From: an uncultured Gemmatimonadaceae bacterium
Lineage (GTDB): Bacteria > Gemmatimonadota > Gemmatimonadetes > Gemmatimonadales > Gemmatimonadaceae
Direction of reading: 5' to 3'
Assembly (NCBI GenBank): GCA_963822945.1
Contig: CAWGJO010000020.1
Coordinates: forward strand, 672,001 to 736,000
Length of the DNA stretch: 64,000 nt
Position 1 is the stretch's first letter. Every line of letters begins with the position of its first letter. The position numbers were made by a program. Positions 37,201 through 43,200 of the stretch are shown here, piece after piece.

Positions 37201-40200
37201 AGACGTCGTGCTTGAAGGCAAGGCCGATGTGGGGCTGTTGATCCACGAGGGACAGCTCACCTTCGGCGACCGCGGCCTTCATCTGATACAGGACCTCGGA
37301 GAATGGTGGTTCCAGGAGACAGGACTGCCGCTCCCATTGGGCGGAAACGTCGTGAGAAAGGACCTCGGGGATGAACTTATCGCGAAAGTATCGCGACACC
37401 TACGCGCCAGTATAGCCTATGCGCTCGACCATAGAGCCGGAGCGCTGGACCACGCAATGAAATTCGCGCGCGGGCTCGATCGGTCCAAGGCAGATGCCTT
37501 TGTCGGGATGTACGTCAACGATTGGACCCTCGACTATGGAGATCGGGGCCGCGAGGCGGTTCGGCTCCTGCTGGAGCGGGGCGCCGAGGCCGGGGTCATT
37601 CCGCACCGCGTCAACGTCGAGTTCGTCGCCGAATAGGAGCGGCCGGACCGCCGTGCCACCTGTTGGCGATCCGGGCGTGGATCCGGTGGCGACCTTGTGG
37701 TCGTCGTCAACGTCCGGGCATTCCAGTTCGTTCAGCTTTCAAGAACCTGATTTGCGGCCGCTTGACGGAACGACTCCCGGATTGTACTAGGGAGTTGTCG
37801 CGCCGGCGGTTGCCGAGCGACTCGGTGCAGGCGCCGGCGCGCAATCGCTCGGTTGTTTGCCGAATCAAACTGAAAACGACTGCGCATGCGCAGGAAATCT
37901 CTAGACCAAACTGAGGAGGCAGGCAATGCCGCGGGGTGACGAGCTGCACGACGGGTTCGGGTTTTCCGACCGCGACGATGATTCGGAAGACCTGGGCTAT
38001 AGCGGTGGAGCGTCGTACGACGACGACGAGGAGGAGGACGGCGGCTGGATGACCCACAAGGACGACAGCGACGATCTGTGGGACAGCACCGAGGACGCCG
38101 AGGAAGAGGAGGAGGAGGCCGAGGTGTTCGCCGAATCCGGTGAGGAAGAGGAAGATGCGTTCGGCAGCCGGTCAGCATCGGCGGTCAAGCCGGCCGCCGC
38201 CGAAGCGCCGGCCAAGTCGGTAGCCCCGCCGGCGAAACCTGCCAAGGCTCCCGCGGCGGTCAAAGCCCCGGCGAAGCCAGCAGTCAAGAAGGCGCCGGTC
38301 AAGAAAGCAGTGAAGAAGGCGGCGAAGAAGAAGGTCGCCAAGAAGCCGGTGAAGAAGAAGCTGGCGAAGAAGGCCGCCAAAAAAGCGGTGAAGCGGAAGC
38401 CGGCGAAGAAGGCCGCCAAAAAGACGGTGAAGCGGAAGGCCCTCCGCAAACCGGCACGCAAGGCACCAAAGAAGAAGGCCGCCAAAAAGACGGCGAAGAA
38501 GAAGGTGGCCCGCAAGCCGGCCAGAAAACCGGCGCGCAAGGCGGCGAAGAAGGCCGCTCGGAAGCCGGCGAAGAAACGCCGCCGTTAGACGGCGGTTCGC
38601 CCGCCTCCACGGTGCGAGAGAGCAGCAGGAACCCGCCACACTCGGTTCCTGCTGCTTTCCTGTCTCCGCGCCATGGCGCCATACCGCACCGCCCAACGTA
38701 CGGTTGGCGTGGATGACGGCACCCCTCACCGCCACCTTCGGCGCTCGTTATTGTTGTCCCATGCCCACCGTCCGCCGCCCCCCTCGCCCGCTCGATGTCT
38801 GACACCCCGGTGAACATGCTGCGTGCGCACTCTCGCCATGCGCCGTGGAACGCGCGCGGCCTGGCCGCGCACGCCACGGCGCTGGTCGACGCGGCGGGGA
38901 TGCGCCCCACCAACGCATCGGCCCGGGCAGCCCCGAGTGCCCGCGCCATTCGCTTCTACGTCGCGAGCGGCCTGCTCGATCATCCACAGGGCGCGGGCAC
39001 CGCCGCGACCTACGGCTACCGTCACCTGCTGCAACTCCTGGCCATCAAGATCCGGCAGCGCGAGGGGGCGACGCTCGAGACGATCAAGCAGGAAATGCAG
39101 GACGTCACGGGTGATGCCCTCGAGCGTCGCGTCGCCGCGTCGTTGGCGCCGGCGCTCGCCGTCGGGGCCGATGCGGCCGCGCAGACGCACGACGACGCGC
39201 CTGCCGCGGCCTGGCATCGCGTCGTGGTCGGCGACGGCATCGAGTTGCACGTCCGCGGAGACTCGCCCGCCGCCGATGCCGACGCACTCGTCGCGATGCG
39301 CGAGGCGGTGCGGGCTGCGCTGGGACGCGAGGAGTTCCGGTAGGATGCCCGAGGGCCTGACGCTGATCACCGGTGTCGGTCGCGCGGGACAGGTGGGAGA
39401 GGTGGTGGCCCGCACCTTCGCCGCCCGCGGGCATCACGTGCTGTTGGTGAGCCGCAAGGCCGACGAGGTCGAGGCGCGCGCCGACGCGATTCGCGCCGAG
39501 GGATTCGCCGCCAGTGCGTACGCCTGCGACCTCGCCGATGCCGCACAGGTGGACACGCTCACCCAACGCGTGGCCGCGGAGCACGGCCCCCGGCTCGACG
39601 CGCTCGTGAATCTCGCGGGAGGGTTCGCCAGTTCCGGGCCGGTTGCCGACAGCACGCCCGAGACGTGGGACCACCTCAGCCGGATCAATCTGCTCACCGC
39701 GTACACCACAACGCGCGCCTGCCTGCCGCTCCTCCGCCGCGGCCGGGGATCCGTCGTCTTCTTCGCCTCCGAAGCAGTGCTTCCCGGCGCAAAGGTGTCG
39801 GGCGTCTGGGCGTACGCCGCGGCGAAGACGGCCGTGGTCACCCTCATGCGGGCCGTGGCGCGCGAGGAGCAGGGAACCGGTGTTCGCGCCAATGCCGTGG
39901 CGCCGGCCGCCATTCGCACCGCTTCCAACCTCGACAGCATGGGCGACGCTGCTCGCTACGTCGAACGCGAGGACGTCGCCGACGCCGTCTGGTTCCTCTG
40001 CTCCGATGCGGCCCGGGCCGTCACCGGTCAGGTGATTCGGCTTGCCTGACCGCAAGCGCCCCCGGGTCGCTCCGCACCGGCCTCACCCCGTGCCATGACC
40101 CCTCAGCCGCGTCGCCGTATCGCCCCCCGCAAGGTGACGCTCGACCGGTCGCTCGAAGAGATCCCGCTCTTCCGGCTCAGCGACACGCCGGAGGACGCGC

Positions 40201-43200
40201 CCGTGGTGTTCACCAGCCAGACCGGCGGGCGGTGGCGCGTGCTGCCCAATCCCGGAGACCGGCTGCCCGGCACGTTCGATCAGGACGTGTATATCGAGAT
40301 CATGCGTCGCTACCAGGAGGCGGGAAGCCCCGCTGACGGCGCCATCGGCTTCACGCTTCATGCGTTTCTGCACTCCATGGGACGCCAGGTGGATGGCCGT
40401 ACGTACGAACAACTTCGCTCGGCGCTCGTACGCCTCGAACGCACCATCCTCGAATCCACCTCGGCCTACTGGTTGGCAGCACGTGGCGCGACGCTCGACG
40501 GACAGTTCACCCTTCTGAGTTCGGTGTCCATCGAGCGCCGGCGGGCTGCGGATCGAAGCCAGTTGGCGCTCTTCGACACGATGATGGCGCCGGAGCCCGG
40601 CGAAGCCCGGGCGGTGATCGCTCCGGCGATCCGGGAGAATCTGGCCGCCCACCACACGGTGACGCTGTCGCTTCCCCGATATCTGGCCCTGAGATCCCCG
40701 GTGGCCCGCCGGCTATACCGGCTGCTGGAGCTGGCCCGCTCTGAGGGGCGCCTGGCGTGGCGGGTTTCGTTGGAGCGGCTCAAGGAACTGCTGCCGCTCG
40801 TCCAACGCTACCCGTCCCATCTGCAACGAGTGCTGCAGCCGGCCCACGACCTGCTGCTGGAATCCGGGGTTCTCCGGAGCGCCACCATTCAGCAGGAACA
40901 TCGGACCTGGTACGTGGGGTATGTACTCGGAAGCCGGATGCCGGCCCACGGGCCGGGGGACCGGGAGCAGCCCCCGGAAGCGCCAAAATGAACGCCGGGG
41001 CGGGATCGGAGTACAACACGACATGGCTACCAAACTCACCCACGAAATCCGCCGCGAAATCACCATCGGCGACGAACCGTTCACTGTCGTCATCTCGCCG
41101 CAGGGCTTGCGGTTATCGCGCAAACGTTTCCGCTCCGGGCGCCAGCTGAGTTGGGAGGCGCTCTGGCGCGAGGGGACCCTGGAAGAAAGCAACGGATCGC
41201 AACCGGCGGACGCACCCGTGCCGGGAGGCGCCTCAACGGTATAGTTTTCGAGAGCTTTCTTCACGGATCTACCGTTCATGAGCCGCTCCCGAAAATTCGC
41301 CGTCGCAGCCGCCCTCCTCATTCCGGCCCTCGCCGGGGGATTCGTTCTGGAATCCCACGCCAAAGGCGGCGGTGCGCTGTTACTGGACCAGGTGCTCTCA
41401 CTGGTTTCGGACCGCTACGTGGATTCGCTCCCCCCGGGGAACGTCTACGAGAAGGCGGCCACGGGCCTCGTGCGTGAGCTGAACGATCCATACAGCCAGC
41501 TCTTCACGCCCGAAGAGATGAAGAACTTCACCACCAATACCAGCGGCCACTACGGTGGTATTGGGATGCAGATCGAGAGCCAGAACGGGATCGTCACCGT
41601 CAGCAAGGTTTTCCCCAACACCCCCGCCGAGGCCGCCGGTGTGATCGAGGGCGATCAGATTCTCGGCGTGGACACGCTGTCCGCGCGCGGCTGGTCGCTC
41701 ACCCAGACCTCGGACTACCTCACCGGCACACCGGGCACCAAGGTGAAGGTCCGGTTCGGACGTCCCGGGGTGTCGCAGCCGATCACGATCGAATTCACCC
41801 GCGCAGTGATTCACGTGCCGGCCGTGCCGTACTCGCTCATGCTGGCCGGCAACATCGGGTACATCCCACTCCAACAGTTCAATGAGACGGCGGCCCGCGA
41901 CGTGGCCGAGGCCGCGCGCGCGCTGAAGAAGCAGGGTGCGCGCGGCATCATCCTCGACGAGCGCGGCAATCCCGGCGGGTACGTGGACCAGAGTCTCCAT
42001 CTGAGCGAGCTCTTCCTGAAGCCCGGCAAGGAGATTCTTTCCGTGCGGACTCGCACAGGGCCGCCGCAGGTGGACTCGACAGAGGGCACGCCCGAGTTCG
42101 GCTCGGTGCCACTGATCGTGCTCACCGACGGGTCCACCGCGTCCGCTGCGGAGATCGTCGCCGGCGCGTTGCAGGACCACGATCGCGCGCTGATCGTCGG
42201 ACAGACCTCGTTCGGCAAGGGACTGGTGCAGTCGGTGTTCCCGCTGGACGACGGGTACGCGCTCAAGCTGACGACCGGCAAATGGTACACGCCGAGCGGT
42301 CGTTCCATTCAGCGGGAGCGGAAGTTCGTGAACGGGCACTTCGTCCCGACTCCACCGGATTCGGCGGAGAGCGACCAGTCCAAGAAGAAGCGCCCGGCGT
42401 TCAAGTCGGACGATGGGCGCGTCGTCTACGGAGGCGGCGGGATCACGCCCGACGTCATCGTGCCCGACGACACACTGACCACGCCGGAGCAGCGGCTTGC
42501 CCGGGCGCTGGCGCCGAAGTCACAGGTCGTCTACGTCACCCTGTATGCGTTCGCGCTCGACCTGTCGCACCACCTGGAGCGCGGCTTCACGTACCAGCCG
42601 GCGTGGCGCGCCGATTTCATCAAGCGGCTGACCGCCAAGGGAGTGGACGTCGACCCCAAGCTGTACGCCGCCGCCCCGCAGTACCTGGACCGGCTGATCG
42701 AAGATCGCGTATCGCGATTCGTGGAAGGCGATTCCACGGCGAAGCGGCGCGAACTGCGGTACGACGCACCGCTCGAACGTGCCATTCAGTTGATGGAGAA
42801 GGCCCGGAACCAGCAGGATCTGTTCAGAGTCGCCGACGTGTTGCCGCCGGCGGCGCCCCCCAAGAAACCCTGAGGTCCCCCATGCGGCCGTCCCGGATTG
42901 CCGCCGTCGCGTTGGCGACGGCGGCCCTTGCCTGTGCCCACCAGAACTCAGTCGTCACCGTGGCCCCGTTCCCGGGCGAGCACCACCTGACCAACATCCG
43001 CCAACTCACGTTCGGCGGCGAGAACGCCGAGGCGTATTTCAGCAGCGACGGCCAGCGCCTCATCTTCCAGTCCACGCGCGACGGGCGGACCTGCGACCAG
43101 CAGTTCGTCATGAACGTCGACGGCTCCAACGTCCACCGCGTGTCCACCGGCACCGGCAAGACCACGTGCGGCTACTTCTTCGGTAACGACCGGAAGATCT

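Follow-up and report, generated by a model that had tools for sequence, protein, structure and literature searches.

The 298-aa open reading frame at 40095..40991 (+) of the window (the whole stretch of 64,000 nucleotides analysed here, from the chromosome of an uncultured Gemmatimonadaceae bacterium) encodes a plasmid-type replication initiator, hereafter Rep, which has become a core, but not universal, chromosomal gene of the Gemmatimonadaceae. Compared with its plasmid relatives, the chromosomal Rep no longer has the plasmid origin or a C-terminal domain, has kept both recognition helices unchanged across the family and has gained a wing loop of fixed length carrying a clamp-type motif. The loss of origin and tail, together with the new and strictly conserved clamp-type sequence, suggests a new use in assisting or regulating the copying of the chromosome. 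We found no description of it in the literature searched.

The presence of the gene was verified. PF10134 is the sole domain match on the protein (E 5e-20; 72.5 bits against a curated cut-off of 27), which carries neither an AAA+ (Hda-type) nor a YabA domain. One copy is present in its own genome, and the gene occurs in 117/120 family genomes at 54-74% identity, a count that takes in the unpublished genomes G007 and G026. A family-profile search recovered it in 69/71 family genomes versus 0/229 other genomes of the phylum, and PF10134 was present in 89/94 family genomes versus 0/106 other genomes of the order (both family counts include G007). An earlier note had described a single-copy core gene confined to this family. 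Copy number and confinement were confirmed, and the gene is near-universal; it is not universal, however, as G014 and G187 lack it in an intact local context and represent true losses. Three further genomes without Rep (G063, G381 and G389) were excluded from the losses because the neighbouring MerR gene is missing too, as is dnaA in G381 and G389, and in G115 a Rep fragment lies at a contig end. Rep is inherited like dnaA and is equally slow to change: Rep and DnaA distances are correlated (Mantel rho 0.88, 14 genomes), their means are 0.312 and 0.308, respectively, indicating the same evolutionary rate, and Rep dN/dS is about 0.01-0.17 (nine pairs). The two genes share a contig in 45 genomes and the neighbours of Rep are housekeeping genes in 50 loci, as expected from the claim that it lies on neither a plasmid nor an island.

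Upstream of Rep are a MerR-type HTH gene (38795..39343, +), which belongs to an older oriC-proximal block also found in sister families, and a short-chain dehydrogenase gene (SDR; 39345..40049, +), with which the window's Rep gene is probably read. Downstream lie a conserved 73-aa ORF (41023..41244, +), present in part of the loci and without Pfam or NCBIfam match, and the gene of a C-terminal processing protease (S41) that has a hydrophobic anchor at its N terminus (41278..42873, +). The fixed place between SDR and protease proposed earlier holds on the protease side, S41 being the tightest positional neighbour (49/50 loci; the 50th stops at a contig end and G038 is counted twice), whereas the SDR is adjacent in only 37/50. 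Similarly, the proposed distance of 90 kb from oriC is correct here (about 91 kb), but the distance to dnaA varies from 55 to 682 kb, with a median of 86 kb, in the 45 genomes. Closeness to oriC was rejected as a trait of Rep, since families f2 and f3 also have the MqnD-MerR block close to dnaA. GAAC-N17-GTAC (40990..41014, +) is a promoter-like element of the ECF-sigma type that belongs to the genes downstream. Its stricter GGAAC form occurs downstream of Rep in 23/48 loci versus a shuffled mean of 1.2. GGAAC-N-GTA was discarded as a Rep site, because similar elements (as judged by eye) precede the S41 genes of the Rep-less family f2.

In a quick tree, the family Reps group as a single long-stemmed clade adjacent to genuine iteron-plasmid initiators, with a support of 93 (unstarred) for the sister group, in agreement with the proposed domestication of a plasmid-type initiator. 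These sister plasmids (L118-L128) and plasmid Reps of Rubrobacter, Deinococcus and Thermus constitute the iteron-plasmid PF10134/TrfA-like group; identity between the chromosomal Rep and annotated plasmid Reps is 26-31%. With the sister initiators it shares a collinear WH1-WH2 core (hhalign probability 99.9, 30% identity) and a similar WH2 helix, while the WH1 helix differs. Only the sister initiators are preceded by 5-8 iterons and an AT-rich region of 9-mers, ParA and relaxase being encoded close by, and only they carry a C-terminal helical domain, sometimes with DnaA_N; the clamp loop is absent from them. Their iterons are 21-23 bp long, and an iteron array with an AT-rich element was found beside rep in 9/11 loci examined. 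One could imagine that the chromosomal Rep blocks or limits incoming donor-group iteron plasmids by occupying or handcuffing their iterons. The likeness of the WH2 helices agrees with this, and a Rep without tail might have a dominant-negative effect. Nevertheless, the unlike WH1 helix, the absence of any match to the sister plasmid group in the genome contig collection, and a DnaA-like slow evolution with near-universal retention, unlike that of defence genes, render such plasmid control highly improbable.

The predicted structure of Rep is a tandem WH1-WH2 (pLDDT 89.9) whose best Foldseek matches are RctB domains 2-3 (E 2.4e-9), followed by RepE and Pi. The fold assigned previously is therefore upheld; RctB is a fold neighbour but, at 12-14% identity, not the closest relative. 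A sequence search of solved structures returned no relative and a search of phages no match. In the N-terminal block (residues 16-64; 40140..40286, +), D17, R18, E21, F26, R27, R46, W47, R48 and R56 are conserved at 99-100%. By analogy of secondary structure, this block may be the counterpart of the single-stranded-DNA-binding region of RepE, for which such an interface has been described (PMC10602881, in excerpt). The WH1 recognition helix (residues 100-116; 40392..40442, +) is near-invariant across the family, as is the WH2 recognition helix (residues 237-251; 40803..40847, +), which resembles its counterpart in the sister plasmid initiators, and Arg-Arg-Arg 148-150 (40536..40544, +), at the base of the WH1 wing loop, is invariant. 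The protein ends about 20 residues past WH2: a C-terminal tail of at least 50 aa is found in 0/120 chromosomal Reps versus 73/81 outside relatives. This missing tail is a four-helix bundle without clear fold match, and its ESM Atlas leads to RepB_C and RepA_C were all below 0.9. The C-terminal domain is not needed in RepE or Pi (excerpt of PMC10602881). In ESM Atlas features, the chromosomal Rep lies near TrfA clusters (0.96).

The feature gained is a single family-specific insertion of 12 residues in the WH1 wing (40560..40595, +), fixed in length and defined relative to the sister profile, whose first five residues, QLALF (40560-40574), form a beta-clamp-type motif. The pattern Q[LFMI]x[LF]F was present in 168/168 family Reps versus 0/81 outside relatives, the 168 being the best 120 family matches plus 48 locus proteins, which are kin and so not independent. 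The frameshifted L043 (G097) was excluded from this count and from alignment A2, and L038 from A2. Q and F are fixed and position 3 is free, a conservation that fits the beta-clamp consensus QL(S/D)LF (PMC9690074, in excerpt). The motif occupies an exposed, flexible and otherwise variable loop, modelled at low confidence (pLDDT 53-61). Across the 2.24 million ORF residues of the genome there are 37 occurrences of the pattern, including those in the cell's own MutS (QLGLF) and DinB (QLALF, identical to that of Rep); the majority of these matches are in unrelated proteins.

A predicted complex of Rep with its own DnaN scored 0.58 versus 0.01 for the best control, with at least 54% of contacts agreeing between runs and a partner pLDDT of at least 82, and weakly supports an interaction. 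The score mark is reached by 116/157 solved and 2/215 mismatched pairs; at 0.60 or less, however, it is reached by only 18/157 solved pairs and both mismatches, and a pass in this band is more likely false than true, except where the pair was probable to begin with. Since clamp-peptide complexes are already solved, Rep-DnaN may also have passed by likeness. The weakness of this prediction and the many pattern matches in unrelated proteins would agree with a DNA-binding or nucleoid protein whose QxxLF loop serves self-association or recognition by a protease or chaperone, the clamp not being the partner. We consider this improbable in view of a clamp consensus fitted in 168/168 proteins within a loop that otherwise varies.

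As the earlier note had stated, the contig skew turns at dnaA and nothing marks a second origin at the gene. The skew minimum (803,518 in contig numbering) adjoins dnaA (803,700-805,115), and the strand-resolved third-position skew switches at dnaA with no switch at Rep. In G039, G013 and G012 the raw minima fall off dnaA in short windows; their strand-resolved skew, noisy at that scale, fits a switch near dnaA and shows none at Rep. The Rep locus contains no iteron array (20-23 bp period) and no AT-rich unwinding element, and 0/117 four-fold sites of the gene show the low variation expected of synonymous constraint. A second origin at the Rep gene was rejected on these grounds. Nor did a detector that recovered 7/8 sister origins find an iteron-like array in the genome of the window, which is 88% complete, or in five further dnaA-rep intervals. 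The sister iteron was dismissed as Rep target, its matrix performing at chance level (4 matches versus 5 in a simulated contig), and no DNA target of Rep was found at the locus, at oriC or between the two. The oriC layout is the same with and without the Rep gene. A candidate Rep-specific element, an AC located some 64 bp before the trios and the sole difference, proved to be a degenerate box with a one-base shift in Rep-less genomes (anchorable loci: 23/29 Rep-bearing, 10/10 Rep-less).

These observations bear on the idea of a backup or second initiator firing an origin at another chromosomal site, or firing when the cell is stressed. Two winged-helix domains suffice in RepE, pPS10 RepA and Pi (PMC10602881, in excerpt), the DNA surfaces of an initiator all appear conserved, the DnaA boxes of oriC are degenerate in the order, and WhiP at Sulfolobus oriC3 provides a precedent (PMC3607249, in excerpt). 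Against this, no array was found in the sequences searched, the sister-iteron matrix scored at chance, the gene has neither an AT-rich stretch nor synonymous constraint, the contig skew turns at dnaA only and the C-terminal domain of 73/81 relatives is missing; we regard such an initiator as distinctly unlikely.

A further possibility is a clamp-dependent transcription regulator, which would bind a conserved operator and use clamps left behind the fork to switch genes on or off once the site is replicated, as for phage Mu C (PMC12867686, in excerpt). Invariant recognition helices with a clamp motif, the vanished C-terminal domain and dispensability in two genomes would suit it, and RctB represses its own promoter (PMC6090056, in excerpt). 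However, no conserved operator was seen at the promoter of Rep. Leaderless-promoter geometry occurs upstream in 16/45 loci, and the window's own copy has no such promoter. Autoregulation via the recurrent CTTGCC/TTGCC was rejected, this being an ordinary -35 common in this genome, with 17-18 bp spacing. Footprinting of six dnaA-rep intervals recovered only one element, which we take to be parS. In addition, the strongly conserved, presumed single-strand face would be superfluous in a regulator, and this explanation is in our opinion unlikely, if worth attention.

Host replication genes are retained: DciA is kept in 119/121 genomes, PriA in 61/61 and DnaA in 111/121, which leaves no gap for Rep to fill. 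Since none of the three was replaced by Rep and two genomes truly lost the gene, Rep is accessory. Some family genomes contain replicons of 0.9-1 Mb, which, with RctB as top fold match, could point to an initiator acting in trans for family megaplasmids or chromids; a related proposal is a stand-in for a lost helicase loader or restart protein. Yet those replicons carry their own Rep of about 600 aa, located beside parA-parB in G030 and distant from the chromosomal Rep in the tree, and single-contig G038, G114 and G333 keep the chromosomal Rep while lacking the larger one. The in-trans role was rejected accordingly, as was replacement of DciA or PriA, both still being present, and the pair of proposals has hardly any probability left. 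Among the few genomes searched, neither Hda nor YabA was found, and a twin DnaA-domain protein was rejected as Hda, being encoded in a GTPase/DUF4388 operon. A clamp-type motif, in domain II, was seen in DnaA itself in each of the three families of the order that were sampled.

We favour, with a confidence that comes close to an even chance, a role of Rep as clamp-tethered DNA-binding helper of chromosome replication. An iteron-plasmid initiator gene would have been captured once, in the family ancestor, and rebuilt as an accessory replication factor. WH1-WH2 would bind chromosomal DNA and the opposite face probably single-stranded DNA too, as in RepE and TrfA, while the wing motif would catch the beta-clamp next to the DNA site. 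By analogy with TrfA at oriV, Rep might then hold the clamp or hand it to the loader, which could aid replisome assembly or restart, or tune the free clamp available to DnaA, itself motif-bearing in the order. It would start no replication at its own locus and is dispensable in some lineages. Several observations speak against this helper role: no DNA target at the locus, oriC or between, an oriC layout unchanged without Rep, the retention of DciA, PriA and DnaA, and the viability of G014 and G187. Moreover, a clamp motif alone does not imply a replication role, that of MuC serving transcription (excerpt of PMC12867686).

A broader reading, possible but doubtful, is a clamp-centred replication control unlike that of model bacteria, with DnaA docking on the beta-clamp by its own motif and the captured Rep as factor for clamp hand-off or replisome re-assembly. 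The DnaA motif suggests a way in which initiation and replisome could be coupled independently of Hda and YabA. If this reading were true, a bacterial core replication factor would derive from a Rep of iteron plasmids that has given up initiation at its own origin. Rep has been retained as long as this large soil family has existed, and the loss of the tail and gain of the clamp motif that accompanied its capture indicate a new function that is specific and easy to test. Given the two natural losses, a Rep deletion strain is probably viable and the role testable in cultured family members.

In TrfA of plasmid RK2, the clamp motif (L137-F138) precedes the winged-helix core, whereas that of the chromosomal Rep is inserted in the WH1 wing, so that it was probably gained independently. 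TrfA resembles it as a Rep that recruits the beta-clamp through such a motif, required in replisome assembly at oriV (PMC4980987, in excerpt), but works on a plasmid at its own oriV iterons. RctB of Vibrio chromosome 2 is likewise a domesticated, family-wide initiator with a Rep-like two-domain core. It has four domains and 658 aa and sits at ori2 of a chromid, which it fires (excerpt of PMC6090056), in contrast to the 298-aa Rep on a main chromosome without origin. WhiP of Sulfolobus is a non-essential chromosomal tandem winged-helix protein reminiscent of plasmid Reps; its gene, which contains repeats within the ORF, is adjacent to oriC3, and this origin requires WhiP (excerpt of PMC3607249), while neither origin nor internal constraint was seen for Rep. 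RctB and WhiP stay bound to their original origins, and the chromosomal Rep is kept without one, with DnaA-like conservation. Phage Mu C (Mor/MuC family) is a sequence-specific DNA binder with clamp motifs that can disturb DnaA inactivation (excerpt of PMC12867686). It differs in its fold, its phage origin and its known promoters. The helicase loaders DnaC and DnaI, domesticated from phages, are mobile-element replication genes fixed as core genes of their lineages; they replaced DciA, which is retained here in 119/121 genomes.

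The Rep gene (window 40095-40991, + strand) encodes a protein of 298 aa. In Pfam and NCBIfam searches PF10134 (E 5e-20) was the sole family matched, and databases label the protein by family name only. Its AlphaFold model (pLDDT 89.9) comprises two winged-helix domains, WH1 and WH2. Structure search matched the model to RctB domains 2-3 (E 2.4e-9, 14% identity) and also to RepE and Pi, the order reported in an earlier note on this DNA, which had also described the gene as single-copy, as it is in the genome containing the window (hereafter own genome). Among family Reps the two recognition helices hardly vary, and neither does a basic-aromatic block at the N terminus. 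RepE uses its helices to read iterons and its beta1/alpha1/alpha2 region to bind single-stranded DNA (PMC10602881), roles that can be transferred to Rep by analogy only.

Rep was found in 117/120 genomes at least 90% complete of the family, which we took to be Gemmatimonadaceae from the name in the earlier finding and the source labels of database matches, with 54-74% identity; a family-profile search detected it in 69/71 family genomes and in 0/229 genomes from eleven other families of the phylum, and PF10134 occurred in 89/94 family genomes versus 0/106 other genomes of the order (all three tallies take in the unpublished genome G007, the first also G026). Its absence from the phylum outside the family, claimed previously, is thus borne out. 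Two full copies were seen only in G054 (8% contamination). Across the presence searches, six genomes had no full Rep. G115 carries a fragment at a contig end, and G063, G381 and G389 lack the neighbouring genes along with Rep. In G014 the MerR gene directly abuts the S41 protease gene, and in G187 a different gene occupies the gap, Rep being retained in its congener G056. These last two are real local losses; Rep is therefore a core gene, as the earlier note had it, yet not essential everywhere.

Rep was captured once and then retained vertically. Over 14 genomes, Rep and DnaA distances correlate (Mantel rho 0.88) with similar means (0.312 and 0.308); the well-supported groups are shared by both trees. 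Rep dN/dS (about 0.01-0.17, nine pairs) is similar to that of the protease. A quick tree built from 84 rows (family Reps 22, relatives 58, secondary-replicon Reps 4) places the family Reps in one clade with support 100 and a long stem, adjoining a group that holds P0171, P0183, P0187, P0189 and P0193 (support 93, unstarred). To collect the relatives, 1.84 billion representatives were searched with a profile: among the best 150 of 1,819 matches, 81 were near-full-length, all less than 45% identical. The nearest annotated plasmid proteins, 26-31% identical to Rep, are from Rubrobacter, Deinococcus and Thermus.

Judged by sequence, the sister group has classic iteron origins at its loci. In 9 of the 11 examined, an array with a period of 21-23 bp precedes AT-rich 9-mers, behind which rep lies; ParA was found in five loci and a relaxase in three. 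These loci (L118-L128) are putative, apparently undescribed iteron plasmids whose iterons end in GGCAAG; L125 differs in its iteron, and its Rep is more distant. Their 9-mers show a period-3 pattern reminiscent of the oriC CTA repeats. The large secondary replicons of the family use a separate, distant PF10134-like Rep of about 600 aa, which adjoins parA-parB in G030, each of the two megareplicons of this genome having one near parB. Such genes lie at L086:7063-8859 and L087:7006-8820 and in L088, L089, L090 and L091, on secondary replicons or other contigs; no iteron array was found beside the four examined.

The S41 protease gene follows Rep in 49/50 loci and the SDR gene adjoins it in 37/50, a count that includes one genome twice. 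The fixed place between these two neighbours proposed earlier therefore holds for the protease and only partly for the SDR. Rep often shows a leaderless promoter geometry of sigma-70 type (16/45 loci). The Rep-protease linkage is probably positional, since the protease has its own ECF-type element (23/48 loci versus 1.2 in shuffled sequence) and a hydrophobic anchor at its N terminus. A conserved 73-aa ORF without family match (41023-41244, +), preceded by an ECF-type promoter-like element, occurs in some of the loci. Conserved upstream of Rep in many loci, a protein (37926-38588, +) whose N-terminal half is strongly acidic and whose tail of Lys/Ala repeats resembles histone H1 gave no Pfam match above cut-off.

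Among 45 genomes chosen from tables for having Rep and dnaA on one contig, the distance between them is 55-682 kb (median 86 kb; 50-120 kb in 37), so that the 90 kb to oriC given previously, which fits the own genome (91 kb to dnaA), is not a fixed distance in the family. Rep is oriented towards oriC in 43 of them. Its position is inherited from the landing site, since the MqnD-MerR block is also oriC-proximal in the Rep-less sister families. In G073 alone, a second DnaA C-terminal-domain match (C56:50655-50849, locus L094; E 2e-20), within a frame of 425 aa, is some 3 kb away from Rep. Short 14-15-bp periodic, partly inverted repeats, lineage-specific and not iteron-like, flank Rep in G030 and G038 (L034:6791-6935 and 7806-7914; L053:8254-8383).

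Rep marks no second origin, in agreement with the earlier note. On the 958-kb contig, the cumulative GC skew minimum (803,518) coincides with dnaA, 91 kb from Rep, and strand-separated third-position skew switches at 800 kb, not at Rep. No iteron array was present at the Rep locus in four genomes, nor in six dnaA-rep intervals or the whole own genome with a detector that recovered 7/8 sister origins, which extends the earlier failure to identify iterons. The sister-group iteron matrix gave chance-level scores, and the Rep coding sequence showed neither synonymous constraint nor an AT-rich stretch. A backup initiator like WhiP, a chromosomal precedent (PMC3607249), seems quite improbable here, though the 88% completeness of the own genome and the chance of an origin with an imperfect array leave some room for it.

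The protein itself has changed at two places. A C-terminal tail of at least 50 aa past WH2, forming a helical domain, with DnaA_N in several, is present in 73/81 relatives (median 158) versus 0/120 family proteins. Against the sister profile Rep aligns collinearly except for one 12-residue insertion (residues 156-167), which the model shows as a low-confidence loop joining two strands of the WH1 wing, right after an invariant RRR. The insertion starts with Q[LFMI]x[LF]F in 168/168 family sequences, on a hairpin of one length in 166/168; none of the 81 relatives has the motif there, two having loose variants. On capture Rep gained a beta-clamp-type motif; the bacterial clamp consensus is QL(S/D)LF (PMC9690074). 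Across its 2.24 million ORF residues, the own genome has just 37 matches to the Rep pattern; ten were identified, including MutS (QLGLF), DinB (QLALF, identical to Rep) and also unrelated proteins. Candidate clamp clients of this genome lie at L147:293-1534 and L150:159-1412; a DUF72 protein has QMSLF at its C-terminal end and a radical-SAM protein starts with QLTLF. In some members (L038, L040; G044, G087) long insertions separate the first WH2 helix from the next strand, clamp loop and both helices being intact in L038 and L040.

A predicted complex of Rep with the DnaN of the own genome scored 0.58 versus 0.01 for the best control (contact agreement at least 54%, partner pLDDT at least 82), passing a mark reached by 116/157 solved and 2/215 mismatched pairs; the support is weak, and passes at or below 0.60 comprise only 18 of the 157 solved pairs but both mismatched ones. 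Because structures of clamp-peptide complexes exist, the pass may reflect likeness to them.

Rep has thus lost origin and tail, kept its DNA-binding surfaces and is dispensable in some genomes. A DNA target is needed by backup initiation and by both readings below, and footprinting of the dnaA-rep intervals recovered a single element, which we take to be parS. Rep would bind DNA and offer its wing motif to an adjacent beta-clamp. Because of these proposed contacts, and because such a motif in TrfA serves replisome assembly at oriV (PMC4980987), we favour, at somewhat short of even confidence, an accessory clamp hand-off, restart or clamp-availability factor. The main rival, a clamp-dependent transcription regulator with MuC as precedent (PMC12867686), appears unlikely.

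OriC is an ordinary spacer between dnaA and dnaN that contains degenerate DnaA boxes together with CTA repeats, presumably the DnaA-trio, and is alike in genomes with and without Rep. Boxes are degenerate and CTA repeats strong order-wide (L056-L085, L098-L105); in most family loci a single good box shares bases with the -35 element of the dnaA promoter. DnaA (111/121), DciA (119/121) and PriA (61/61, including unpublished G163) are retained. Domain II of DnaA opens with Q[MLI]D[LFMI]F in 28/30 family loci, the other two being a truncated gene and a second copy, and in 8/8 loci of the other two families of the order versus 0/12 of other orders. Forms such as QMDFF, QMDLF and QLDIF occur (L056-L085, L098-L105, L189, L190); the own dnaA lies at L093:2204-3616 (- strand). 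This clamp-type motif, present in Rep-less G014 and G187, is older than Rep, and DnaA of the order may dock directly on the clamp. A search of five genomes found no YabA. Nor was there a clear Hda in five genomes searched with PF00308, which matched dnaA, in four of them also a twin-domain protein, and otherwise gave weak partial matches. The twin-domain gene of the own genome (L152:1679-3637, +, contig C4) is a 653-aa frame that encodes two DnaA ATPase domains but lacks a DNA-binding domain. It is flanked by a small GTPase gene and by a DUF4388/TPR gene, and we set it aside as an Hda; it recurs in 4/5 further genomes and is absent from G014.

The domestication of Rep is real. In the open-access literature we found no paper on this gene or on the clamp motif in DnaA of the order; a published survey, cited in PMC4980987, reportedly treats plasmid Reps with DnaN-binding motifs. 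Mobile replication genes are already known to have been domesticated, and what is new here is the clamp-type motif, concrete and testable. DnaC/DnaI, themselves domesticated mobile replication genes, replace a host factor, which Rep does not. RctB, a further domesticated gene of this kind (PMC6090056), and WhiP both stay with an origin, whereas Rep does not.
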